Source: a virus (Duplodnaviria > Caudoviricetes). Taken from it: a stretch of DNA of 64,000 bases. The stretch spans positions 64,001-128,000 of IMG/VR virus record IMGVR_UViG_3300043105_000102; one strand, 5' to 3'. Of the stretch, positions 1,621 to 64,000 are shown piece by piece. The notes under the pieces were generated by a model. It worked only from the letters and a program-made list of their open reading frames with translations, ran no database searches and was not told the DNA's origin. The stretch's first letter is position 1. Each line of letters begins with the position of its first letter. Both the position numbers and the translations under genes were made by a program.

Positions 1621-1860
1621 ATGTTTAAAGAAAACTCCGCAGAAGAGCTAACTGAGGAACGTAAACTTAAAGAATATATATATGATAGTTTGTGCTTAAG
1701 ATATAAGATTGCCAGAGAAGCACAGGCAAGACATGAGGTAAATACTCATTATAATGGCAATATAAAAACAGCCATAGAAGCTGCTAAAAGAGATGAAATG
1801 AGATTTTATCAAATTTTGGATGATGTAATTTTTAATATGGAAGGAGGAAATAAAATTTGA
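1621..1860 (+). CDS. Hypothetical protein
   Basis: 79 aa ORF with AAGGA RBS directly downstream of the promoter. Confidence 0.7.
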   Translation: MFKENSAEELTEERKLKEYIYDSLCLRYKIAREAQARHEVNTHYNGNIKTAIEAAKRDEMRFYQILDDVIFNMEGGNKI

Positions 1861-3382
1861 TTCTTACTAATAAGCAAGAAGAAGGTTTGAAGATTATTGT
1901 AGCCAGATACAAAGCAGGAGAAAAATATACTGTTGTATCTGGCTACGCTTAAAAGCTGGTGTCGGTAAAAGCGTTTTAGTTAGATTTGCTGTTGAAGCTT
2001 TGGGGGTGCCAGAAGATACAGTAGCTTATGCTACATATACGGGCAAGGCCGCCGAAGTTTTACGCAAAAAGGGTAATAAGGGGGCTATCACACTTCATAA
2101 GCTTCTATATAACTGCTATCCTCGTAAAGATGGCGGATTTTATAGAGAACCTAAAAAATATTTGGACTATAAAGTTGTTGTTGCTGACGAGTGTAGTATG
2201 ATCCCTAAGACTATGGTAGACCTTCTTTTGAAGCATAATGTTTATGTATTATTCTTAGGTGACCCGTTTTAAAGCACTGGGACGGGCTAAAATAATCTAA
2301 TTGCGGGAACCTCCTGAGAGTTCACTCTACTAACTTATTATAGTGATATGAATAAGGGCAAAGGGTAATGCCGGAGATTTAAGTAAAAACGAGTGAAATT
2401 GGACAATCCGCAGCTAAGTTTCTAAAAGGTTTTAGAAAAAAGTTCAACGACTATCGAAAAGTATTTAATTACTGAGTAGAGTACACTGCAAGTTTATGGC
2501 AGTGGAAATGGTTATCCTAGAAGATATAGTCTGCTCTCACGAGAAATTGTGAGCTTGGATATTCCAAGAGATAAGGTTTGCGCCCTTATCTAAACAGGGA
2601 GGCAGCTCCCACCAATAAATAAAGATGAAGCAAATGACCTTCTAGAGCATCCTCATATCTTTCTTGATGAAGTATTGCGCCAAGCTGCTGACTCAGAAAT
2701 TATTCGAATGACTATGAAAATCCGTAACAATGAGCCTATTCCTTATTTCAAAGGAACTGATGTTATGGTAATTCCAAAAGCAGAGTTAGTAAACTCTTGT
2801 TATACTTGGGCCGATCAAGTATTGGTCGCCACGAATAGGACTAGAAAATCTATCAACACTCAAGTTAGAAAGATGAAGGGACTCAGTGGGTTGCCGCAAG
2901 ATGGAGACAAGATTATCTGTTTGTCAAACTATTGGGACGATATTTCTATGACCGGAGATGCCCTAGTAAATGGCACTACTGGAACTGTACGCAACCCGGT
3001 AGGAAGAGTAAAGAAGGTTCCTTATTTCTTTAATATTCCCGAAAATTCCATTCATAGCATCCAATTCGACTTTGAAACAGAAGAAGGCTCTTGTTTCAGT
3101 GGCATTGAAATGGATGAAAAATTAATTCAAACTGGAAGAAAGGCTGTTGAAGATTATAGTGTTGCTTATCGTTTGAAAAGCTACGAAAAGAAAACCGGAG
3201 AAGAGTTTATTCCCAAAGAGTTTGACTATGGGTATGCTATTACGACTCATAAAGCCCAAGGTAGTTCTTGGCCAAAAGTACTAGTAATAGAAGAGCATTT
3301 TCCAACTATTCAAGAGGAACACGCCCGCCATTTGTATACTAGCTGTACAAGAGCTTCTTCTCGGTTAGTTTTGGTACGTTAA
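1857..3382 (+). CDS. SF1B RecD/Dda-like helicase, discontinuous: 1857-1949 + 1958-2269 + 2603-3382 (394 aa)
   Basis: TTG start after GGAGG. Joining the segments restores Walker A GYAGVGKS, Walker B VVADECSMI, GDPF|QLPP, RQA, YAITTHKAQGS and LYTSCTRA. Confidence 0.85.
1899..1957 (+). other. 14-bp hairpin + GCT-TAA-AA-GCT 8-nt coding gap (candidate translational bypass element)
   Basis: GTAGCCAGATACAA (1899-1912) / TTGTATCTGGCTAC (1933-1946), then GCT, TAA, AA, GCT, then GGT GTC GGT AAA AGC in a different frame. Confidence 0.6.
2270..2602 (+). mobile_element. Group I intron (333 nt, no ORF) in helicase
   Basis: Core elements AATTGCGGGAA, AATCCGCAGC, GTTCAACGACTA, AAGATATAGTC. P1 CCCGTTT/GGACGGG, P10 CTG/CAG; ends in G; restores GDPF|QLPP. 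Confidence 0.92.
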
Positions 3383-3948
3383 TGAATTTAGTAACAATTG
3401 ATTTCGACATAATTATGGCGCCTAGCATTGAAAGTTATAATAATCAAGTTTCTACTAGTCGGCCAATAGAAAAGATAAAAGAAGATTTTCCTTTTCTTCC
3501 AGAGTTTCCGGCTGATTTGTATATCTATGAGTATCTTACGAGATATATTTTAAGTGTTGCTAAACAGAATAAGAAAATATATTTTATTGACGACCATAGT
3601 GAAGTAGTTCAATTTTTTGAGACGCCCCCTTATAGCCTGTATAATATAGACCACCATCATGATATAGGCTATAATTGGGGAGCTTCACGTGATTGCGGCA
3701 ATTGGGTAAGATTTCTTTGGAAAGAAGGAAAAATTACTTCTTACACTTGGATAAACGATGAAAATTCTCAAAAAGCGCCAAAAAGAATCCAAAAGTACTT
3801 AACAGAAGAAAAGAACATTAGAGAGACTAATTTAGAATTATTAGCGCCAGAAACAGATGTTTTGGTATTATGTGCCTCTTATGAATGGGTGCCGCCCCTG
3901 TACCATCCTTTATTTTTGGCGTGGAAAACCATGATTGAATTTATCTAA
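3382..3948 (+). CDS. UPF0489/arginase-deacetylase-fold-like hypothetical protein
   Basis: TIDFD, DDH, NIDHHHDI and DCGNWV motifs; translationally coupled (TAATG) to the helicase. Confidence 0.55.
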   Translation: MNLVTIDFDIIMAPSIESYNNQVSTSRPIEKIKEDFPFLPEFPADLYIYEYLTRYILSVAKQNKKIYFIDDHSEVVQFFETPPYSLYNIDHHHDIGYNWGASRDCGNWVRFLWKEGKITSYTWINDENSQKAPKRIQKYLTEEKNIRETNLELLAPETDVLVLCASYEWVPPLYHPLFLAWKTMIEFI

Positions 3949-3990: not shown

Positions 3991-4037
3991 ATTATGAAGA
4001 TACGAAACTACCCCGGTAGCCTTCATAATCACTAGAT
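3991..4037 (+). other. Hairpin + CAC-TAG-AT 5-nt coding gap (candidate translational bypass element)
   Basis: ATTATGAAG (3991-3999) / CTTCATAAT (4021-4029) with inner CTAC/GTAG stem, then CAC, TAG, AT, then ACT GAT TAT AGT in the frame of the 4053 ORF. Confidence 0.55.
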
Positions 4038-7000
4038 ACTGATTATAGTAATTTGCGACTTCGTGACTCTATTAACCGATATGATAAGCTTATTGATTAT
4101 GCTATTGAGTTAGGCCACGAAGTTATTGCTTTTACAGAGCATGAATCAGTTTCTAATGCGGTAAAAATCCAAAAGTATTACAAGAAGATTAAGTCCGACC
4201 ATCCCGATTTTAAAGTAATTCTGGGTAATGAGATTTATCTATGCCGAAATGGATTAAATAATGAAAATTTTGTTTCGGGAGAAGATAGATATTGGCACTT
4301 TATACTTTTGGCGAAAGATGCTATTGGCCATCAGCAAATAAGAGAAATTTCTACTAGAGCGTGGAAGCGTTCCTATAAGGCTAGGGGAATGCGGCGAGTC
4401 CCCACTTATTATCAAGATCTTGAAGAAATAATTGGGGCTAATCCCGGCCATGTTATTGGGTCTAGTAGTTGCCTTGGCGGCTATTTACCTTTTTTAATTC
4501 TTAAATATAGAGATAGCAGCAGCGACCAACTCTTATGGCTAGAAAGAATTAACCAATGGACTAATAGTATAGAACAGATTTTCGGAAAAGGAAACTTCTT
4601 TTTAGAGCTTCAGCCCTCAGAATCAAAGGAACAAACTTATGTAAATGAGTTTTTGGTTTCTTTTTCCTCTCAGGCAAATATTCCATATATTATCACAACG
4701 GATTGAAAAATAATGCTTATGAAGATTATTAAAGGAATAGAAGGAGGTGAAAAAATGCGTAGTTTAAAGTCTTTTTCGGCAGAAGAAAAACAGCAAATTT
4801 TGAACGATAAAAGAGAAAACCCATTCAAAAGATATTAGATAAAATCTATAGTAACGTACCCTTTTTTGCTTAAAGCGAAAATACATAAGCATTATAAATG
4901 ACAGTCGAGTTAAGCTGTGAAGCTTAATGTTAATCCCCGCTAACCCAGATTGCAATGGGGTGTGAGCCAATGGCTTGCTAACGGTTGAACTCCTGCAAAG
5001 GACAATCCCGTGCTAAATTACTGTAAAGTATAAATGTGTAACGACTAGTTCGGAGGAACGTAGAATGGAGATGCTACCATTCGAAAGACGGGGCATCTGT
5101 TTGAAGCAGCAGATGAAAATATAGTCTATTCTTTATAGCAATATAAAGTATTAAAGAGTCATTATGCTAGAAGGGAAGATAGACCAATTCATAAGGCCTA
5201 TTTGAATGCAGAAGATGGCGATAGAGAAGTTGATTCTTTTTATGCAACGACTTATATGATGGATACAGAGGAACTAGAGAGCCATTTAAGCTTAACAGAC
5301 GAACAACTAGAAATAGCTTATCAGAATATTAGGAAAATAAAAGAAATGTGTTCTGATTATAGCCTGTTAAAGCCTTTGAAGATTCCTGAGTTAGTTTGGA
5401 AAGAGCCATCTTATTTAATTAGTCCAAGCACTTATTATAAACAGATTCCTTATCTTCAAACCTTTGTTGAATCAGAGTATCGTGGAGATAATCTATTGGC
5501 ACAACATGTTGCAGATAGATTATCTTGGGATACAACACTTCAAAATCAAAAAACTTATGATGCACTAGATGAATGTTTAGAGATGACTTGGAAATCATCT
5601 TTAGTCAATAAAACACATTGGAGTGCCTACTATTTAAATCTACAAAAAATAATTGATATTGTCTGGGATGCTGGAAGTCTGGTGGGGCCATCAAGAGGTT
5701 CTGGTACTGGGTTAGTAACTAAGCTCAGTTAAAAATTCGTGAACTATATTGCTCATAGGTGTCTAGTATAATTACTAGGCTAACGGTTCAGAAAGCAGTA
5801 ATGTTATTATGAGTAAGGGAACCTAAGTCTTTAACAAAGATAAGGAAATACCGTGTCAAGTTTGCTGATTATATTAAGCAAAAAGATGTAGAGACTATCG
5901 AAAGGTGTAATAGCTGAGTAGAGTAAAGTGGAAGATGAGCTACCACTTGAAGCGCGAATTACTTATATATTAAGTAAAGAGATAGTCCATGCTATATAGA
6001 AATATATAGTGTTCAGTTGTCTTACTATATGTATTGAATATTATACAGATAAACGCATTGCGTGAAACTACCAAGACAAAAAGTTGGAGATTTCTTAATC
6101 CTAGTCGAGTATCAGTTTTGGATATTGATGTAGATATAGAAGGCTCAAAGCGTGAAAAAGTTTTACAAGCTCTAAGAGATAATTATGGAGAAGATTATGT
6201 AGCTAACGTTATTACTTTTGGCGTTGAAAAGTCCAAATCAGCTATCCTTACTGGTGCAAGAGGACTAGGCATGGACAATAATGACGCACAGTATTTTTCT
6301 TCTTTAATTCCTTCTGACAGAGGTATCACTAGAACTTTACACCAATGTTATTATGGAGATAAAGAAAATGGTTTTGCGCCCATACCTCTATTTGTCAAGG
6401 AAATGGACGAACATCCAGACTTATGGAACGTGGCGCAAAAGATTGAAGGATTGATTTGCCAGATGGGTATTCACGCTGGGGGAGTTATTTTCGTAGATGA
6501 ACCTTTTACCAACTCCACTGGCTTAATGCGGGCGACAGATGGTACAATTATAACAGCTTATGACCTCCATGATTCAGAAGATGTGAGTCAACGAAAGTTA
6601 AGGCTCCTAAATGCTTAATCACTTATCAGTGATGTTATATAGGCTCTTAGAAATAAGGTAAGTAAAAAATACCTATATGGCACCGGGGAAACCTAAGTCA
6701 AAAATGATATGGCAATCCCGGACTAAATTGGGTAGCTTCCAGCTATCCATAAATGTCTATCGACTATCCCTCGGAAGGGGAGTAGAATTACTATTGATAC
6801 GTAATTCAAAACAGCATTCTCTTTAAAAGAGTAAGATATAGTCAGTACCATTGGAAACAATGGAACAATACGCTTATCAAGTACGACCTATTATCGGTTG
6901 AAGGATTTGATAAAATCCATACTTGCTTAGATTTGCTTTGTGATAATGGATTGGTTGAAAGAAAGCCCACATTAAGAGAAACATATGAATCAACTATTGG

Positions 7001-10000
7001 CATTTACAATCTTGAAAGAAAAGATCCTAGAATGTGGAAAATGATTTGGAATCATGAGATCGAATCATTATTCCAAATGGAAAAACAGAGTGGTGTTCAA
7101 GGAATTGCTTTAACAAAGCCTCAAAGTGTAGACGATTTAGCCCACTTAAATTCAGTAATCCGGCTAGTAGCACAAGATAAGGGCGCTGAACAACCACTAA
7201 GTAAATTTGCTCGTTTTAAAAACGATATTACCTTATGGTATAAGGAAATGGAAGATGCCGGATTGACCCAAAAGGAACAAGACCTTTTAAAAGAATATCT
7301 CTCAGGGTCATATGGTATTTGCGAAGCACAAGAACTATTTATGGAGTTAGTTCAAATTCCTGAATGTGGCGGATTTGACTTAAACTGGGCCGACAGGCTA
7401 AGAAAGAGTATTGCTAAGAAAAATCCAGCCGAATTTGAACAATTAACAAAGGAATATTATGCACAAGTTGAAGCCAAAGGACTAAGCCAAAATTTATGTA
7501 AATACGTATGGCAAAATTTGGTCGGGATAAGCCGTGGGTAAAAATTTGCTCCCTGTAATAGAAATATTACTTGAACAATGCCGAGAATTGCTGGAAAGCT
7601 AAGTCGAAAGATATGCCAATCAGCAGCCGAGCCATTTAGCTAATGGAAGGTTCAACGACTATTCAGAAAGAAGTAGGAGAAATCCGAAGTACGGCACATC
7701 GTTATTCTACCATGATTTTAGATTAAAGGAGGTGTAAAAATGGATCAACAACAGATAATTGATTGGTATGTTAAAGATGGATTTTCAATAAATTATATTG
7801 CAAAAAATCTACTACATTGCCGTGCAAGTACTATTAGTAAAATTTTAAAAGAAAATAATATAGTCATTAAAAAAGGCGCTACTAAAAAAGTAAATATTAA
7901 TCAAGAGAAAGAAATTATTGAACTATATACTAAAGAACATTATACGCAAAAAGAATTAGCCGAAAAGTTCCATCGTAGTACTGATACAATTCATAAAATT
8001 CTTATTAAAAATAGTGTAGCTATTATTAGTCAACCCAAGATTAACAAAAATCAAATAGACACTTATTTTGATATAATAGATACAGAAGAAAAAGCATATT
8101 GGCTTGGATTTATTTTCGCTGATGGTAATATTTTTAACAATCAATTAACAATAGAAATTCATGAGCGGGATAGGGAGTTGCTAGAAAGATTTAAAATAGC
8201 GCTAAATTTAAACGGAAAAATTTCTCATAGAGTCAGAAAAAATACTTCTGTATGTTCTGTCAGAGTTGTAAGTAAACATCTATGTGAAACTTTGAGTAAG
8301 TACGGAATAGTACCTAACAAAACTTATGTTACTAAACATTTACCACAAGTTCCTGAAACAATGTTACCACATTTCTTACGAGGATTAATTGATGGTGATG
8401 GTTGGATTAGTACAGACAAATCTGGACATTATCATATTGGGTTTGTTAGTCACTTCCCTTCAGTGTGTGAAGATTTTAAAAGGTATTGCAATATATTAAC
8501 CGATGGAAAATGTAGAGCTGCAATTACACGCAAAGATAAAAATTATTCTGGATATTGTTTTCAAATTCAGAGCAAAGAAGCTACAAAATTGATAGCTACA
8601 ATTTTGTATAAAGACAATACAATTTGTCTTAGTCGAAAGTATCGGAGGGTAGAGCCGTTACTTGACTGAAAAAACGATGAAGATATAGTCTTGGGCGATA
8701 ACCAGTTATGAAAATAACATTCGCTCAGACGGCTTTAATTTGAGTCATACATTAGCATATTCCCTTGTGGCACTCCAAGAGATGAACTTAGCATTTAAGT
8801 ACCCTATTGTTTATTGGAACTGCGCTTGCTTGATAGTTGATAGCGGTAGCGTTGGTTCTGGAACAGATTATAATAAGATAGCTATAGCTATTGGTAAGAT
8901 GCGGAAAGCCAACATTAAAGTTAGTTTGCCTGATATAAACCAATCAGACTTTGGATTCAAACCCGATGAAAAGAATAATAGAATCCTGTGCGGACTTAAG
9001 AGTCTGGCAAATGTTGGCGATGAAGTAGTCATAAAAACTATTGACAACCGTCCTTATGTATCTCCAAAAGACTATTTGGATAAAGTTCATCCTAATAAGC
9101 AAGCTATGATTTCCTTGATTAAAGGAGGGGCTTTTGATTCTCTTATGGATAGAAAGCTTTGCATGGCTTGGTATATTTGGGAAACTTGTAATAAAAAGAG
9201 TAAAATTAACCTACAGAATATGTCGGGATTGATTAGATACAATCTTCTTCCCGAAGAAACAGAAGAACAAGTCATGGCGCGCCGAGTTTATGAGTTTAAT
9301 AGATATTTGAAAAGTAGCTTTAAGCAAGGTGACAAATATATATTAACCAATCGGGCTATTAGCTTTTTGAACGAACTGGGCATAGAACCAAGTTTTGATT
9401 CTGGACTTTATTTACCGATTAAAAAATGGGAAAAGGTCTATCAAAAATGGATGGACGTATTTAGAGAGTGGATGGCCGCCAACCACGATAAAATACTCCA
9501 AAAAGTAAATGATAATGTTTTCCGTGAAGATTGGGAGAAGTATGCTCTTGGTAATTATTCTAGTTGGGAAATGCAATCTTTGTGTTTCTATTATCATGAA
9601 CACGAACTCGCCCATGTTAATAATAATCTTTATGGCTTCGCTGACTTCTCTAAGCTTCCAGAAGAACCAGAAATTGTAAAGACCTTTGGGAGCGGTGGAA
9701 AAATTTTCCAGTTGCATACGATTTGCGGCACTTGTATTGCAAAAGACAAAAACAAGAGTACTGTTAGCTTATTAACTACAACCGGAGTAGTTAATATTAA
9801 GTTCAGAAAAGAATACTTCTCTATTTTTGATAAACGTATCTCAGAAATTGGCGCCGATGGTACTAAACATTGTATTGAAGAATCTTGGTTTAGTAGAGGT
9901 AGTATGATAGCGGTTCAAGGCATTCGTTCGGGAGATAATTTTGTACCAAAGAAATATAAAAGTTCAAATTCCCATGAGCTATATAAGATTGATAAAGTTT

Positions 10001-19694: not shown

Positions 19695-21490
19695 TTATCC
19701 GTTGCACCCAAAAGATAGAGGATAACCAGTATAAGGATTGGCTACGGGGTATGCAGGAACGGGGCAGGGCTTAAGCTCATTCACCAGATAAGCATTCTGA
19801 GCTTGCTGAGAAATCTGGAAATTAGCAGTCTGCAATTGACTATCCTTGGCGGCCAGACGATCACGCAAGTCTTGCATTGTGTTAGCATTGATTAAAGCTC
19901 TAGTTTGTTCGGCTTCATTGTGAATAGCGGCAGTAATATCGCAAGTATTACGGTAATTCTCTGCTCTAACGCTATCTATATTGCGGTTTGTGTCACCAAT
20001 TTGTTATCTTATAGGCTCTTTATCCTATAACTCATATAGTTTCCTATATGTTCAGACTATATCTTCTTCCCTAATTATTATTAGGGAGTTCGGCACTCGT
20101 GTTGGTATTATTGTTTGTCATAACTCAACCATTAGTCGTTGAACCTTCTAATTACTTTTACTGACTTTCATTAGCTTGGCTGCTGATTAGCATACTTACA
20201 AATGTAAACTTAGCTTTCCAGCAATTCACCGAATTATTTTTCTAATAGTTACCTATTAGGCTGCCATGATTGTTTAGCAGCAAGACTGCATCGCATAACG
20301 GCTATCCGCAATATTAGAGTTTACAGTATCGAAGCCTTGAGAGACAGCACTAAATCCTGTGCATAAATCACGCTGTAAACTGCCAAAGTTGTTCAGGAGA
20401 GTAGTGTTGTTGGAATAAAATCCATCACACAAACCTTGCTGAATGCCACGAACGCCATTTTCAACTTGCTGGAAGTTCATGTCTTGGCAAAGCTCTCCTC
20501 TGGTCAGGGCGCCTTGAGTTGAAGCATTGTTATTGCCCCAACCATTTCCTCCCCATCCGCCGCCCATAAAGACGAACAGGAAAAGTATAATTATCCCATT
20601 GCTGTTATCCTACTGGCTTTTTGTCCAGTAGCTCTTATAGTTTATAGTTCCTATAAGTTCAGCGCACCTTTTCTACTCCAATATTAGAGTAGTCGCGGCC
20701 TCTTGGAAAAACTAAATAGTTCTGAGTTATTAAAAAACTCTGCTTTATATCTATTGCAGAAATGAAAAAGTATAATTATGTACTTTACTGCGGCTGCTGT
20801 TTAAAACTCTAGTAATAGCACGTTTGTTAATGTTTAAAAGCGCACTAGCTTCAGAAGTACTCATAAAAACAAATTTTTCACCTGTAGTTAAATTTGTTGC
20901 TAAAATCGGTTTACTCTTTATCTGGTCTTTTTCTTTTGTCCATTCAAGATTTTCGACTTTATTGTTAAGTGGATTTCCATCTTTGTGCTTAACATAAGGG
21001 AGAATATTTGGATTATCAAGAAAATATAAGGCCACAAGTCGATGGATTCTAAAAGTCTTTTTAAGCCCATCTTGGCAAAAGGTATACGTTAAATAACCTT
21101 CGTTGTTCATGTGCGGTTCCAAAATTTTCCCATTTTTAACATTTTTGATATTACCACAGTTTGAAACAGCATAATTATTGAACGCATCAATAATTATATA
21201 CTTTTCCATTTCGTATACTCCTTTAATTGACTTTATATAGTAGTCTTAAAGGACTACAACATATTCAGTATGTCTGCGCGTTGCCCCTGACTGTAGTTCT
21301 TACAGCCTTCGGTTCTGATTCCCATCTCAGGGTTCCAGCTTAATTCCGCGATTATTCGATACAAGTTACCTTGTAAAGTGGCAAATATTTATACTTACCA
21401 AGCTCCCATGCCATCGCCAAATCCCTCACGATTGGCACCAGAAGCAGTTGCAATGTCGGCTAAAGAATAGCCACTGTTTTGATTGAACAT
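19695..21490 (-). CDS. Membrane-anchored Gly-rich/coiled-coil protein (module gene 3), spliced: 21490-21397 + 20596-20276 + 19996-19695 (238 aa)
   Basis: GGAGG RBS + ATG 21490. Splicing gives MFNQNSGYSLADIA...GAWWIIILFLFVFMGGGWGG...MQSCCCDTNRNID...PCPVPAYPVANPY; total 717 nt in frame. Confidence 0.88.
19997..20275 (-). mobile_element. Group I intron (279 nt, no ORF)
   Basis: On - strand: P1 GCTGCT/GGCAGC, P10 TCAT/GTGA; AATTGCTGGAAA, AATCAGCAGC, GTTCAACGACTA, AAGATATAGTC; T|GT restores CCC. Confidence 0.92.
20597..21396 (-). mobile_element. Group I intron (800 nt) with a NUMOD4-HNH ORF
   Basis: On - strand: P1 TGGT/GCCA; AAGCTGGAA, AATCAGAAC; P7 GCGCA/TGCGC; P3 TCGCGG/CCGCGA; T|GG restores WW. 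Confidence 0.88.
20751..21209 (-). CDS. Intron-encoded NUMOD4/HNH endonuclease, possibly degenerate
   Basis: YAVSNCGNI, GYL, IHRLVA, HKDGNPLNNKVENLEW, C-terminal NUMOD1-like STSEASALL; AAGGAG RBS. Confidence 0.8.
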   Translation of the reverse strand: MEKYIIIDAFNNYAVSNCGNIKNVKNGKILEPHMNNEGYLTYTFCQDGLKKTFRIHRLVALYFLDNPNILPYVKHKDGNPLNNKVENLEWTKEKDQIKSKPILATNLTTGEKFVFMSTSEASALLNINKRAITRVLNSSRSKVHNYTFSFLQ

Positions 21491-57300: not shown

Positions 57301-58788
57301 GTCACAAACTATAGATAAACCACGAATTAAATCTATTGTAGCTTGATTAGCTACTTCTCTTTCATTATCTAATTCAAGAATATCACTATAATAATAATTG
57401 ACTTGACCATAATATTCAGACAATATACTATTTATATTATTATAAAGTTCAATATCTTCTTCTTTTTCTGAGCCTTTTAGTTCTATAAGTTTATCTTGGG
57501 CTGCTTTAAGAATCTTACTATTAACTCCTAATAGACTAGCAAGTTCTTCATCATCTTCAATAGTACCTTCAATATATTCTCTTGAAGGATATTCAATAAT
57601 TACTTTTATTTTCTCATATTGTAATGAAATATCAGGGGAAAATTTTTCTATCTCAAATATATTTTCACTATTTGTATCTGTAATTTCTTGCCAAAAGGCG
57701 CCAGCTAATTCATCACTTATGTCCTCTTTTAATACATATCTATACCAATGAAGCTTTCCTTCTTTTGGCATATCAGTTATCGTATAAAAAGAAGAAGTAT
57801 CACTATCCTGATGAATCCATCTTACTTGTAAATGTTTATAGTTATTTTCTTCTAAAGCTTTAATACCTGTATCTTTACCTTCGCCGGTTAAAAAAGGCGC
57901 ATAGGTTTCAGAATCTAAAGTATACAATAAAACCCTATCTTCATCAAAATCATTCAAGTCATACCCTAAACTAATATAGACGTTAGCCGCAAAGATATTA
58001 GCAAATAATTCTTTCATATTATCTTCTATTCCTTCTGGATAGCTTGAAATAAGACCAGAATTATTTACAAAATCATTTTTTTGATAAAGAACTAGTGACA
58101 TTTGAGTAATTTGTGTAATATTTGAAATATCAAAAACCAATTCTTGACTATAATAAGTTTCAAAATTATAAGGGTCGCCATACATATCACTTGAATCTAA
58201 ATAATAAGAATATCTAATATATTCTGATTCAGTTTGAGAAGTTTGCGGTTCCTCACTAATAATATCTAAGCGTAATCCATAAGAACCAGATAAAAGATTA
58301 AAAGAAGATAATCTAGTTTTAAAATCGGCGCGAAGCCCTAATCTATCGTACCCTTTGGCGTTAGAAATATCATTTTTACTCCAAATAACTTTTTCTTTAG
58401 AGTCATTGGCTATAAGCCATTGTTCCTTTAAAGAATCCGTTATCAAATTTTTAGTAATATCTACATAGCTATCCATAGGGGGAGTGTAGGTATAGTATTC
58501 GGTATTATCTTGAGTATACTTCCCTATAATTATCTTCTGATTGTTATAATCGCCGCCCGGTATTGTTACATACACATGGGTTCCAGAATTATAGCTTGTA
58601 TTTTCGGAATAAGCTCTAAAGGTTATGCTTCCATCATCGACTACATACTCGCCCTTTTCCTTATTGGAATCATCGGTTATTTCACAAACAATGGTTTTAT
58701 CAAAAGAAACTTTTTGGACTTCTTTTTCTGCTACTATTTGGATAGCGCCCAAAATATCTTCCATTACTTGGTTATAATCTTTGGCCAT
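54385..58788 (-). CDS. Large tail/baseplate spike-like protein (1467 aa)
   Basis: N-terminal FDKT...OB-like segment; repeated YFLQS.DY...G..F.LATGKLTAY.F; ATGGKIGGF repeats; F.NGI C-terminus. Confidence 0.65.
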   Translation of the reverse strand: MAKDYNQVMEDILGAIQIVAEKEVQKVSFDKTIVCEITDDSNKEKGEYVVDDGSITFRAYSENTSYNSGTHVYVTIPGGDYNNQKIIIGKYTQDNTEYYTYTPPMDSYVDITKNLITDSLKEQWLIANDSKEKVIWSKNDISNAKGYDRLGLRADFKTRLSSFNLLSGSYGLRLDIISEEPQTSQTESEYIRYSYYLDSSDMYGDPYNFETYYSQELVFDISNITQITQMSLVLYQKNDFVNNSGLISSYPEGIEDNMKELFANIFAANVYISLGYDLNDFDEDRVLLYTLDSETYAPFLTGEGKDTGIKALEENNYKHLQVRWIHQDSDTSSFYTITDMPKEGKLHWYRYVLKEDISDELAGAFWQEITDTNSENIFEIEKFSPDISLQYEKIKVIIEYPSREYIEGTIEDDEELASLLGVNSKILKAAQDKLIELKGSEKEEDIELYNNINSILSEYYGQVNYYYSDILELDNEREVANQATIDLIRGLSIVCDEDGYNGIYCIYSDTGEIMSSAENTKQRILSAKYSSLITGDDRLDTAEQITWKIPLQNTMIELVEGKDYNSNEAYIDSGYLNIIRTGISISEDRSAGDEIATDAEQYFHIKKYYSQTAINNTVYCQVIKNNITYEASYTLSFGPSGSNGTNYTFTLEFEDKVNALNFSSKDKVKVIPHIYNYEKKDITDEFESDRFSYDWYSEGKGGIEKEQNGNDCSLWVNNTTNFLNCQFYILRGMISEVDTGIADTTTNLTAFLCIPVKLDDTYTAFDGATKIVYNTAGTSPQYYQDSYKLYTFENNRTKEVSDITWKMAYGDDTQGTEDGVAITSTNYYPQVSEGGTLTVPSMFLQDNGVQIAVNGYLGDSLVWTQPIRIYQDSYASSAINSWDGSLTLDEKNGTILSTMVGAGYKDNQNRFHGVLMGDVATGSGDSAVKKIGLYGYHEGVQSFGLKVDGTAFFGKSGKGQILIDGNTGVIKSSAWGTSGSDGGMKIDLDDGIIDTRSEKYTTTQGTTTQARILIDPCKRTNEDGTEDENKIYFLVQSKAGNPLFKVGSDSYFLQSDDYESGSSGVNFNLATGKLTAYNFSIQATNSTEGDSHKGSYISLNSNGNPYFKIHYEDSSTEASVDLINITKTAFALRSQNWADGTSGTLLDLAKGRLYMRSSWTKDWEKDSSGNNVNNSYVRLSSLSGEPYFTIRHKGKILFEVGTYENSSGKEVSSYLLQSADYDASAGTGLRFDLATGKLTAYDFMIKAFNSSNTNKSILINSGASEFPLRIQDTSDGGNDFKVSWSGAVTCDNLTATGGKIGGFTIGSSALYTKDKDFGGSGIYLGTNGLSVANGVFQVNSEGKLTATAGKIGGFEINTETGNMSYGNLTFGSGVISLGQTKMTYSDTYKSLGINGMLVVDGLLCDGGATFKNGSIIVNGNYYFIGNYAVSSGGIMSYGGTKDVEIPTTDGTVTLHFINGIFTSSSTN

Positions 58789-61900: not shown

Positions 61901-64000
61901 TTTAGCTATTTCTTCGTCCATTAACTTGAGCTTAGTTTTTCCAAACGCTCTATCCTTGGCCGCAGAAATTTTATCTAATTGGGCTTCTATATCTTCTAAT
62001 TGATTAAGGACTACATGATAACGTTCAATTTCATCAGAAGCTTGCTTTTTGTCTTGACTATTTCTTGAAGCAGAACGACTACTTCCACGGCGACTACCAG
62101 CAGTACGACCTCCTCTATTTAAAGAAGAATAGTTATTCGCACTGCCAGTCGGTTTTGCTGTCAGACCTGTAATCTTAGGAGTCTCAACTGTCCCTTGTGG
62201 GCCTATTTCTGTAGCAAAGGCAGAAAAATATCCCTCTTGGTCTTCATATTCTGTTGTAGTGTATTCTCTATCAATCCAATTATCTGTGTTTCCTGCATCA
62301 GGATACTCTCTGTTATGATAGGTTGTAGTAACAGGTATTCTTGAAGTAGTTGGAACAGTCGTTTCGGCGTATTCAGCTTCAAGGCTTAGCCCATCGCATA
62401 GTGCATCAACATCGGCTACAGTCATGCCCATTTCTTCTATTAACGCATTTAATCCTGCAACGAAATTTGCATCATCTACTTCTGGATTGACAGTAAGATC
62501 CATTCCAGCTAAATCATTTTCAAGCTGCTGTCTAAGACTTTCGTATGTACTTAAAAAATTATTATATTCTTCTGAACCTTCCTCAAAACCATTATTAATA
62601 GCAATATTAACGAAAATTGTATCAGCTAATGCTGATTTTAAATCATCAATAGCATCTTCGTCACCAGTGGCAGCCTTAGCAATTTCATCAAGATGACTAG
62701 TAATAAAATCGTCAGAGACATATGCCGTAGAGACATCTAATAATTCAGCAATTGCTTCTTTTGTATTTGTTAAAGCATTAGTATATTCTTCGCTAGTCTT
62801 TTCACTTTTCTTGAGAATGCTGCTCCAATAATCGCCACCATCTCCTGCGTCCACAAAGTTATCAGCTAGAGTATCTATTGCATTATTCATTTTCATAACA
62901 GTTTTAGCGTATATTTTAGCCTGCTTTTCTGTCATGTTGGTAGTTTCTTCTAAGTAGTCTGTGTATTCTGCTAGTTCTTCACTATCGAGATTTTGAGTAT
63001 CAAGAGTTTGGCTTAAATTATATGATGCCGTATTAAAAGCGTCAAGACTGATTTCTCCTTCTTTATAAGCCTTAATCAAATCTTCCAAACTATCATATTG
63101 AGACGCTTTGGCCATCTCAAGTGACCAAGATTCTGCTTGCTGCTCTGCCATTACGTTATTTAAATCTTCGATGGTATAATCAAGTTCTTGATAAGCTTCA
63201 TTTATTTCTACTACAGTCTCTTTCCACGAATCACTATCTAGGCCTTGACCCCATTCTGCTAGTTGTCCTTGGCTTTCGGTTCCTAATGCACTCATAATGC
63301 TCATTTGCTTCTTGGCTTGTTCAAAAGGATCCGCATCGCTGCCAAATTCTTTTAAACCACCAGCAATTATAGCATCGCCAATAATAGAACTAGATTGTTT
63401 TAATTCGTCTATTCTAGCGTTAAAAGTTGCATTACTATCTTTTTGAAAAACTTCTTGTAACTCTTCAGCAGCCCCAATTAGTTGATAAGTCCCATCCATC
63501 ATCATAACGAAATAGGATTTATAGGCATCATCTAAGGTCTGATAATCTTCTGCACTTATGGTATCCCCTGTCGATAAGCTACTAATTATATCATTCTGCG
63601 CTTTATAGGAAGAAGTCAATTTCTCTATAGAAGTAGAAGCAGTATCTAATGCGTCTATGAGATTATTCAATTGCTCTGTCGTAAAATCGGTTTCAATTCC
63701 AGCTTCCTTTAACGCAGTAGCTAAATCATTAGCAGAAATATCATCAAAGGACATTCCATTAATAGCATCAGCAAAACTTTGAGCCTCATTACTATCTAAT
63801 TCATTGAAAATACTCGTAAGAGCGACTAATCCCTTAGATCCACTACTTTCAAAAGCATTCTCCATTAGATTGGCAACTGATTTTTGGGCGGCCGCAGTCC
63901 ATTGATCTTTGTTTTCTAAATTCTCAAAAGCATCTTTAGCCATGGAAAGCATATTGTTGCCAATAGAGCTAAAGTCTAATTCCAAAGCTTGATTAAACTT
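58913..64000 (-). CDS. Tail tape-measure protein, C-terminal part (frame continues past the window end)
   Basis: >1690 aa helical/coiled-coil; SH3-like segment; GYDTGGYTG...ALLHQKELVLN C-terminal motif. The frame is open from 63985 to 64000. Confidence 0.85.
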   Translation of the reverse strand, partial: KFNQALELDFSSIGNNMLSMAKDAFENLENKDQWTAAAQKSVANLMENAFESSGSKGLVALTSIFNELDSNEAQSFADAINGMSFDDISANDLATALKEAGIETDFTTEQLNNLIDALDTASTSIEKLTSSYKAQNDIISSLSTGDTISAEDYQTLDDAYKSYFVMMMDGTYQLIGAAEELQEVFQKDSNATFNARIDELKQSSSIIGDAIIAGGLKEFGSDADPFEQAKKQMSIMSALGTESQGQLAEWGQGLDSDSWKETVVEINEAYQELDYTIEDLNNVMAEQQAESWSLEMAKASQYDSLEDLIKAYKEGEISLDAFNTASYNLSQTLDTQNLDSEELAEYTDYLEETTNMTEKQAKIYAKTVMKMNNAIDTLADNFVDAGDGGDYWSSILKKSEKTSEEYTNALTNTKEAIAELLDVSTAYVSDDFITSHLDEIAKAATGDEDAIDDLKSALADTIFVNIAINNGFEEGSEEYNNFLSTYESLRQQLENDLAGMDLTVNPEVDDANFVAGLNALIEEMGMTVADVDALCDGLSLEAEYAETTVPTTSRIPVTTTYHNREYPDAGNTDNWIDREYTTTEYEDQEGYFSAFATEIGPQGTVETPKITGLTAKPTGSANNYSSLNRGGRTAGSRRGSSRSASRNSQDKKQASDEIERYHVVLNQLEDIEAQLDKISAAKDRAFGKTKLKLMDEEIAKQSQLIEKQKEYLAQIKANLKADKSAFSSYAQSYTGLAAVYDANGTITNYEALMKAALAKYNAAVAVYNTKTTDDDAAKATFEKAEDNYEKFTKLLEQYEETQDLYAEQTNDLLEKQYEYYDDLLEKTTYIVELKVDVNDDDLQLMEYYLNKIEDDAYEAAQAIALISSEAGDALGKIAAYQTGLGDILTNHGYSGGKIITNLMNGSMTGADLIKTIGKDSTFTEDEVSQIRDYLSEILSESENLDQYRKDIFEKIGDVIEENNNRLDRTITQIQHLQKVTQSYMNIVDLVGKKTLGLSSEVLAVFNQAIFKESVDNLTASKVKMDTIQQELADAEAAREQARKQGLTEDIDLWDEQIQNIEDELWDAQEEYMSAWEDALQSASDAFTTNIQNAVDEATTALGGIYGSLEQLQTQFERTQDASSVYVEDYERAYQLTKLMRDIDKSASETNNIKAKRELLELQEEIAQYQADGVEMSEYELEYLRDEYELRLAQAALDEAENAKSQVTMTRDSEGNYSYVYTANDQDVADAEQNYSDKLYEMEKLNAEYINTLQSQMMELDQDTIERIQEISGLIDDGVLSVEEGYQLIYDTRADYLEKHAALDAEMNLTLDNNIETYEDYGEEYVRLTGDRAQVDMDYVDSFNETYLGQKTGYDTVEEYARNSIEQLESLFDESIEYTERYSEQVNYANEMAGTSTDELAERMTEDMEQISEESSELSDSIQEIADESIQKFEEVIDAVGNFETEYSKVIDNILAKNEALVKSFNAVIASWSSFQAKDTSTKSSSSSSSSTSSSGSGSSSSDSASGDGQIQIGDKVTYSGTYYEESSGNGKTGTGSGTAYITGINSKSKYPYHISSKPGNVNTDSASAKNTWIGWLTKSQLSGYDTGGYTGNWGSTDGKLALLHQKELVLNKEDTDNFLAAVDVVRQISEIIDINALSASGGLSNLVAASVNTNAGTLEQQVTIKAEFPNATDKNSILEAFDNVINLAAQYANRK

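Follow-up and report, generated by a model that had tools for sequence, protein, structure and literature searches.

Helicase gene interrupted in the Walker A motif

The viral sequence analyzed here is a stretch of 64,000 nucleotides (nt), referred to as the window, which comprises bases 64,001–128,000 of one 155,944-bp contig (IMG/VR record IMGVR_UViG_3300043105_000102, Caudoviricetes; G+C content 35%) and in which a helicase gene is interrupted by 8 nt within the Walker A motif. The gene content of the window is phage-like, with replication genes, a tail lysozyme-like gene and proteins of up to 2,242 amino acids (aa), and the genome also carries 12 tRNA genes. Region 1857–3382 encodes a Dda/RecD-like helicase of superfamily 1B with AAA_19/AAA_30 P-loop and UvrD_C_2 domains (Pfam E-values of 4e-12 and 8e-13). 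The nearest helicases of cultured phages, annotated as Dda-like or RecD-like, are 37% identical. In blastn comparisons with cultured phages the group I intron of the gene was the sole match, and no laboratory phage with the helicase cassette was found.

The helicase is encoded in three segments separated by the 8-nt gap and by the intron (Table 1). The first open reading frame (ORF), at 1857–1952, has 31 codons ending in SGYA and a stop codon, whereas the next listed ORF begins at TTG 2000, past the P-loop, so that the motif is missed by the ORF track, as the earlier note on this DNA had pointed out. Across the junction the sequence reads TCT GGC TAC GCT (1938–1949), TAA (1950–52), AA, GCT (1955–57) and GGT GTC GGT AAA AGC (1958–72). 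The reading proposed in that note, in which 1950–1957 is skipped to give GYAGVGKS, is colinear with uninterrupted orthologues, where the motif is ISGYAGTGKS. The window thus carries exactly 8 extra nt, with no codon lost, and alignment at the DNA level with two uninterrupted orthologues (L001 and L002) shows a clean 8-nt insertion. With the 8 nt skipped and the intron removed, the three pieces tile the 393-aa L001 protein (IMG/VR) with no residue missing or extra. The intron contains no ORF and is absent from both of these orthologues. An origin of the gap as an intron remnant or transposon footprint was considered and rejected: it does not duplicate flanking sequence, and its ends are inconsistent with an exon-final U and an intron-terminal G.

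Table 1. Features of the helicase and polymerase loci, in window coordinates
Feature	Position	Strand	Description
Helicase segment 1	1857..1949	+	TTG start, 31 codons (LILTNKQEEGLKIIVARYKAGEKYTVVSGYA), the last being the take-off codon; aligns to residues 1-31 of the uninterrupted L001 orthologue
Hairpin 5' arm	1899..1912	+	GTAGCCAGATACAA; covariation in 25 relatives
Hairpin 3' arm	1933..1946	+	TTGTATCTGGCTAC; ends one base before the take-off codon
Take-off codon	1947..1949	+	GCT (Ala31), last in-frame codon before the stop
8-nt coding gap	1950..1957	+	TAAAAGCT: TAA (1950-52), AA and landing triplet GCT (1955-57); absent from uninterrupted orthologues
Helicase segment 2	1958..2269	+	+2 frame; from GGT, GVGKS...GDPF (Walker A to motif II); AAA_19, AAA_30
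Group I intron	2270..2602	+	Between GDPF and QLPP; Rfam RF00028, 67 bits at 2259-2553; junction from orthologue alignment
Helicase segment 3	2603..3382	+	QLPPI... to stop; UvrD_C_2 domain
Polymerase hairpin	3991..4029	+	9-bp stem, ATTATGAAG (3991-3999) and CTTCATAAT (4021-4029); covers start ATG 3994; ends one base before take-off
Polymerase take-off and gap	4030..4037	+	CAC (4030-32) and 5-nt TAGAT (4033-37) in the HxH motif of the PHP domain; resumes at ACT 4038

The insert is real and recurrent. When proteins are clustered at 90% identity, the product of the third exon groups with members from other runs and assemblers, whose contigs were compared with the window. A Logan contig (L006, SRR11793810) matches 5.7 kb of the window with 100% identity and contains both short inserts, that of the helicase and that of the polymerase described below. 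The polymerase insert is also unchanged in a second Logan contig (L008, SRR11793811) and in one from a JGI sample (L009), which differs by nine single-nucleotide polymorphisms in 2.1 kb. The helicase gap site is thus covered by one other assembly, with identical sequence, and the polymerase insert is identical in three other contigs. Neither an exact-sequence scan of IMG/VR with the junction of the window nor an exact-protein look-up with its exon-3 product returned a match.

Gaps in related helicases

Orthologues were gathered through two shorter helicase products (protein search), a degenerate DNA pattern run over IMG/VR, 80 loci fetched with a profile and one metagenome scan. The resulting set of distinct helicases contains 28 interrupted and 60 uninterrupted members. 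In every case the interruption follows the Ala of (S/A)GYA and precedes the Gly of GxGK(S/T). Take-off codon and gap occur in 21 distinct combinations, and gap lengths of 5, 6, 7, 8 and 11 nt cover all three frames, including the in-frame case. The 5-nt gaps are taact, tagtt, tagat, tagtg and tgact; those of 6 nt are taagca, taaact, taggta, tgaact and tgagtc; those of 7 nt are taaggca, taaggcg and taaagta. Gaps of 8 nt include taaaagct (after GCT and after GCC), taaaagca, taaaagcg, taaaggcg, tgaaatcc and taacgacc, and the single 11-nt gap is taacgaaagct. TAA, TAG or TGA opens all 21 gaps, a feature that is lacking in chance non-helicase matches to the same DNA pattern. With gaps in all three frames, the family as a whole cannot be served by any one mechanism of frameshifting or readthrough. 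In the window itself the stop codon is not in frame with the downstream coding sequence, which lies in the +2 frame, as opposed to the arrangement expected for readthrough or reassignment.

The interrupted genes are under selection. The ORFs downstream of the gaps are all open (the complete ones are ~360–372 aa) and their products are 39–64% identical to the window protein. The ratio of nonsynonymous to synonymous substitution rates (dN/dS) between gapped pairs is 0.03–0.14, including the pair L117/L149, in which gaps of 8 and 6 nt place the downstream sequence in a different frame. Low dN/dS and intact downstream ORFs suggest that the gapped genes are expressed as full-length helicases.

The last three nucleotides of the gap, the putative landing triplet, match the Ala take-off codon at position 1 or 2 in 21 of 21 gaps (0.34 expected from base composition) and are GCN in nine (0.034 expected), the rest being GUN, GAU, ACY or UCC. 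In the 5-nt gaps, a stop codon ending in A is followed by CT, whereas the G of a TAG stop itself becomes the first position of the landing triplet. The matched GCT codons on both sides of the gap, to which the earlier note drew attention, are a true feature of the window, but an identical landing codon is not a rule of the family, given that an Ala codon is found in only 9/21 gaps. Similarly, the mini stem-loop GCT-TAAA-AGC is present in the window, but it comprises only 3 bp and lacks conservation among relatives.

The codon at the take-off position is GCC or GCT in 27/28 gapped versus 20/60 uninterrupted helicases. The bias is strongest for GCC, found in 20 of the 28 gapped genes and in 2 of the 60 uninterrupted ones, which mostly use GCA, GCU or GCG. 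The phage encodes a tRNA-Ala(GGC) with a normal 7-nt anticodon loop, inspected for oddities; the cluster of 12 tRNA genes (G000:C1:24060-27659 in genome coordinates) also includes tRNA-Asn(GTT). Such a bias could indicate a dedicated tRNA, for which the phage's own tRNA-Ala(GGC) is a possible candidate, but it may reflect shared ancestry of the cassettes and is considered only as a lead. The helicase genes of several relatives (L016/L135, L027/L119, L053 and L145) contain an in-frame TAG, which in L135 and L119 occupies a conserved Gln position near the N-terminus, suggesting that TAG has been reassigned to Gln in these relatives. Their gaps all begin with TAA, which is consistent with a ribosomal mechanism but, with four cases, not significant.

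Conserved hairpin upstream of the gap

The inverted repeat in front of the gap consists of two 14-nt arms with 100% complementarity and a 20-nt loop, confirming the perfect hairpin of the earlier note. Only 11 local inverted repeats were detected in the 64 kb, and the other ten are terminator-like intergenic hairpins or weaker, imperfect repeats. The predicted fold of 111 nt around it has a z-score of −3.26, and none of 200 shuffled sequences was as stable. Uninterrupted orthologues encode nearly the same amino acids across this region, yet cannot form the stem.

By contrast, every gapped helicase has a stem of 7–16 bp, whose 3' arm stops 0–1 nt short of the take-off codon. Among the genes retrieved by profile, a set assembled regardless of the hairpin, the stem is found in 6/6 gapped and 1/59 uninterrupted genes (Fisher p = 8e-8). 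The hairpin also covaries. When 25 N-terminal regions are aligned without gaps, 90.3% of cells across the 14 pairs are paired, compared with 20–48% when the partner columns are slid, and the covariation score of 0.176 was not reached in any of 500 shuffles (0.117 in shuffles). Compensatory changes are seen at pair 43–90 (G-C in 12 sequences, A-U in 7) and pair 55–78 (A-U in 9, C-G in 6), while pair 48–85 is C-G in 18 sequences and U.G in 6. G.U pairs are few in these stems (none or one in most), and their presence points to pairing as RNA rather than DNA. In one relative (L066), where a Ser codon in the 3' arm is AGT, the stem has been rebuilt using another 5' segment, displaced by 6 nt. The earlier note had suggested comparing synonymous-site conservation in the arms; this comparison was run, but it is biased, because the search pattern fixed the 3' arm, and is not used here as evidence.

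A single uninterrupted helicase has a version of the hairpin (L104:53-145), with a 9-bp stem formed by ATAGCCAGA and TCTGGTTAT. It may belong to a lineage that has lost its gap.

Second gap in the PHP motif of a DNA polymerase

The same arrangement is found in the Pol III alpha-like gene of the window, which starts at ATG 3994, reads MKIRNYPGSLHNH and stops at TAG, while the frame encoding TDYSNLRLRDS continues 5 nt further on. Homologous polymerases read SIHNHTDVSNYRLRDA (SIHNHTDVSN) at this PHP motif. Two further types of polymerase gap were identified in relatives: in L010, L012 and L094 a 10-bp stem precedes a gap of 11 nt (tagtggagtat), and in L029 an 8-bp stem precedes one of 4 nt (tagc), located one codon earlier. 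A stop codon opens the gap in all three lineages (5, 11 and 4 nt), and the landings again pair at two of three positions (CAC to GAU, CAU to UAU and AAU to AGC). Over 35 further polymerase orthologues have no interruption, and inspected examples, such as L026, are unable to form the stem. A protein-seeded scan for further polymerase gaps yielded four more orthologues, all uninterrupted.

We also scanned the whole genome for a hairpin followed by a codon, a stop and a resuming ORF. Among 112 raw matches, only the helicase and polymerase sites were real. The matches at 57,843, 47,386 and 48,101 of the genome are off-frame and due to chance. The match at 62,505 has a 16-bp stem, but its hairpin covers the true ATG of a RecJ-like gene and the TAA is out of frame. 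A genome-wide scan of coding potential for frame switches was uninformative, as its signal was swamped by ordinary gene junctions. The RecJ-like hairpin itself (G000:C1:62440-62510, ~1.5 kb upstream of the window) contains one G.U pair and is formed between the region 5' of the ribosome-binding site and the ATG with the first codons. It may control translation and is not a bypass site.

Association with homing endonucleases

The gapped state is scattered on the helicase tree, requiring at least 9–11 changes (FastTree). Gapped L066 and L109 have L055 and L077 as close relatives without a gap, and on comparison the sequences cease to be similar within the N-terminal coding region as well as 5' of it. 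Seven gapped lineages (L066, L109, L154, L115/L017, L124/L018, L135/L016 and L118) have an ORF of ~165–195 aa immediately before the helicase start, either overlapping it or ending no more than a few bases away. This ORF encodes an HNH endonuclease (phrog_2255, E = 5e-23; the match to Pfam HNH_2 is just below the cut-off). HNH remnants are visible upstream of the helicase in L057 and L129. The gap is linked to the HNH gene, in that no such ORF adjoins the helicase in any of the 60 uninterrupted loci; most gapped genomes, on the other hand, lack the gene. The same P-loop is also the site of LAGLIDADG inteins in L072, L098 and L099. The intein of L098 (L098:436-1530) is inserted after GTGK, begins with AQPV and ends in VTHN, preceding T. 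HNH genes and inteins together identify the helicase P-loop as a homing hot spot. A mobile cassette with an HNH homing endonuclease is the evolutionary context of the gap, which the earlier note had missed.

Proposed mechanism and alternative explanations

We consider it probable, judging from the comparisons described above, that the 8 nt at 1950–1957 are skipped by ribosomes, i.e. that the gap is a site of programmed short-range translational bypass, or 'stop-hop'. This stop-triggered hop from GCT to GCT behind the hairpin was the model implied by the earlier note; it is supported by the family-wide comparison and appears to be the sole reading that fits it. In this scheme, the ribosome would translate 31 codons up to GCU (Ala31) and encounter UAA in the A site, where it is slowly decoded. 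The peptidyl-tRNA-Ala would then release the take-off codon, the mRNA would slide by 8 nt and the tRNA would re-pair at GCU 1955–57, with two or more matching positions being sufficient in the family. Decoding would restart at GGU (GGN in the family), producing ...SGYA-GVGKS... with an intact Walker A motif. At take-off, the 3' arm of the hairpin (positions −14 to −1) would be located inside the ribosome and unpaired, and refolding of the stem as the mRNA exits the channel might both drive and measure the forward slide. Once the tRNA has landed, the stem base and the P-site triplet would be separated by 5–8 nt in all but one of the 28 genes and by 11 nt in the remaining one; 5–8 nt approximates the usual spacing of a Shine-Dalgarno duplex. 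The gap would constitute the immunity part of the mobile cassette, whose HNH homing endonuclease would target the conserved P-loop DNA, as in the case of T4 mobA/gene 60.

Several observations weigh against this scheme. The role of the hairpin as a driver is speculative: a slide of 5 nt would leave most of a 7–9-bp stem within the ribosome, and the hairpin is 0–1 nt from the take-off codon, whereas that of T4 gene 60 is located 9 nt upstream. For a stem-loop beginning at the take-off codon, in the A site, only weak pairing of 3–4 bp is predicted in the window, and the gap sequences of relatives differ. No nascent-peptide motif is common to the 31-aa helicase and 13-aa polymerase peptides, with take-off at codon 31 and codon 13, respectively. 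The landing triplets GAU, ACU and UCC pair at two positions only. The counts of gapped helicases do not represent independent events, as the cassettes share ancestry and the DNA pattern used to retrieve many of these genes prescribes the 3' arm. Finally, a tblastn search of the window genome found no homologue of the HNH endonuclease, and none is encoded next to the helicase. The cassette of the window phage would then be an orphan, which has kept the gap and hairpin and has lost, or never received, the endonuclease gene.

Instead of being bypassed, the gap could be removed from the RNA or never be made in it, either through the action of a hairpin-guided endonuclease and a ligase or because RNA polymerase jumps after synthesis of the nascent hairpin. 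In two unrelated genes the hairpin immediately precedes the gap, with a constant spacing of 0–1 nt plus one codon, as would be expected from a ruler for an enzyme. Its G.U pairs show it to operate as RNA, and both frame and motif would be restored exactly. However, removal at the RNA level provides no reason for an in-frame stop codon to open 21 helicase and 3 polymerase gaps and leaves the near-cognate last triplet unexplained. In addition, neither the interior nor the 3' boundary of the gap has conserved sequence, and there is no U-tract or terminator-like context. Given also that we know of no such splicing or jump machinery in bacteria or phages, we regard this explanation as unlikely.

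Still less plausible is ordinary recoding that adds residues, namely a −1 or +2 shift in the window (giving SGYA-LKA-GVGKS or SGYA-KA-GVGKS), a +1 shift for the 7-nt gaps and readthrough for the 6-nt gaps. Both gaps of the window (8 and 5 nt) are of the 3n+2 type and could be served by a single −1 shift, and the −1 frame yields similar tripeptides, LKA in the window and LKS in L010. Nevertheless, gaps of 4, 5, 6, 7, 8 and 11 nt would demand three mechanisms in one family. There is no slippery X XXY YYZ heptamer at 1941–1957 and no downstream stimulator at 1941–1990. The 2–3 extra residues would alter the GxxGxGKS and HxH catalytic loops, which are invariant in length in the 60 uninterrupted orthologues.

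A very improbable explanation, in our opinion, is that the helicase, and likewise the polymerase, is broken and persists as a tolerated null or split gene, with another helicase or co-infecting phages compensating and with the hairpin and gap representing scars of homing repair. The P-loop is indeed a hot spot for selfish elements, with inteins in three relatives and HNH genes in seven lineages, and most gapped genomes are devoid of the HNH gene. By contrast, the flanks have remained open and colinear across 28 lineages, whose protein sequences diverge by up to ~60%, with the low dN/dS values noted above, and P-loop codons are conserved upstream of any possible restart, the first start in the window being TTG 2000. 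The compensatory changes in the hairpin are also difficult to reconcile with a scar, which would not keep the stop first and a near-cognate triplet last, and no second Pol III alpha-like gene was seen in the window. As for a sequencing or assembly artefact, it is practically inconceivable, since the identical sequence is present in other Logan and JGI assemblies and dozens of related contigs from many samples are gapped.

Returning to the stop-hop, its elements might form a modular, transferable and 'spring-loaded' cassette consisting of a hairpin in the coding sequence, one sense codon, a stop codon and 1–8 further nt. Such a gap could be placed in any conserved motif to escape homing endonucleases, and the hairpin would be both motor and ruler for a slide of 4–11 nt that needs no nascent-peptide signal or perfect landing match. 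We advance this generalization tentatively, as a possibility rather than a likelihood.

Comparison with known bypass systems

To our knowledge, natural translational bypassing is limited to a handful of systems, namely T4 gene 60 with its homologues, the byp elements of yeast mitochondria and the terminase of phiHau3. Short natural counterparts have long been presumed but not found, and natural in-frame stop-hops were unknown as of a 2016 review (PMC5009743). In our literature searches we came across no account of gaps within helicase or polymerase motifs.

T4 gene 60 with mobA is the system that most resembles the present one. The 50-nt gap of gene 60 protects the phage from nicking by the adjacent HNH endonuclease MobA, and the elements are lost in a 'hit and run' manner (bioRxiv 10.1101/2022.08.31.505936), and a 5' stem-loop is suggested to be the driver of forward bypassing (bioRxiv 10.1101/2024.12.09.627546). 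As in the helicases described here, a non-coding gap is located in an essential replication-type gene, the stop codon is directly 3' of the take-off codon, a 5' stem-loop is present and, in the case of the window, the take-off and landing codons match. Both systems also share linkage of the gap to an upstream HNH gene, repeated gain and loss, orphan gaps and a likely role in destroying the nuclease target within a conserved motif. There are also differences. The gaps described here are 4–11 nt long, show no sequence homology to that of T4 and affect the helicase P-loop and the Pol III alpha PHP motif rather than a topoisomerase. They lack a take-off/A-site stem-loop, a GAG mini-Shine-Dalgarno sequence and any apparent nascent-peptide signal of the KKYK type; landing is often near-cognate only, and the gene is not split in two by the element.

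The nearest experimentally supported short phage bypass is that of the terminase of the Streptomyces phage phiHau3, for which the junction peptide was shown by mass spectrometry (PMC10732093). It similarly involves a short bypass in a phage gene, a slow A-site codon and local RNA structure. Unlike the present gaps, it is triggered by a rare UUA codon, has been proposed to be regulatory, has no reported link to homing endonucleases and occurs in a different gene and host clade. In synthetic 'stop-hops' of E. coli (Weiss et al. 1987, via PMC5009743), peptidyl-tRNA also crosses a stop to a matching codon a few nt downstream, but these hops are inefficient (low-level) and have no stimulators, whereas the helicase family includes natural in-frame gaps of 6 nt, such as GCT-TAA-GCA. 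The mitochondrial byp elements of Magnusiomyces capitatus (PMC5009743) resemble the gaps in that many short inserts are tolerated by bypassing and landing can rely on two-out-of-three pairing. They differ in being mitochondrial, 27–55 nt long and associated with an unassigned A-site codon, and bypassing in this case is described as independent of mRNA context.

The family offers at least 21 natural gap variants (5–11 nt, in every frame) and a second gene, all sharing a simple, clonable design. It makes testable the questions of what causes a ribosome to take off at a stop codon, how landing is chosen with two-of-three pairing and whether mRNA refolding drives the slide. It would also extend the arms-race logic of a homing endonuclease combined with a bypass gap beyond T4. 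A practical consequence is that gene callers truncate such essential genes, as happened with the helicase of the window.

Other elements at the locus

Between the helicase and polymerase genes, a 188-aa ORF (3382–3948) contains an IDHHHD motif and has no Pfam or PHROG match. It is missing in some relatives, where the polymerase directly follows the helicase. The top-scoring group I intron match of the window (93 bits) is located elsewhere, at 20033–20285 on the minus strand, within a cassette of minus-strand genes. Downstream of its gap, the Pol III alpha-like gene extends over 4700–8730 in at least five exons. Sub-threshold Rfam matches to group I introns fall within this region at 5756–6009, 6614–6864 and 7530–7799, and the last intervening sequence of the gene contains an ORF (7740–8669) with LAGLIDADG and helix-turn-helix domains.

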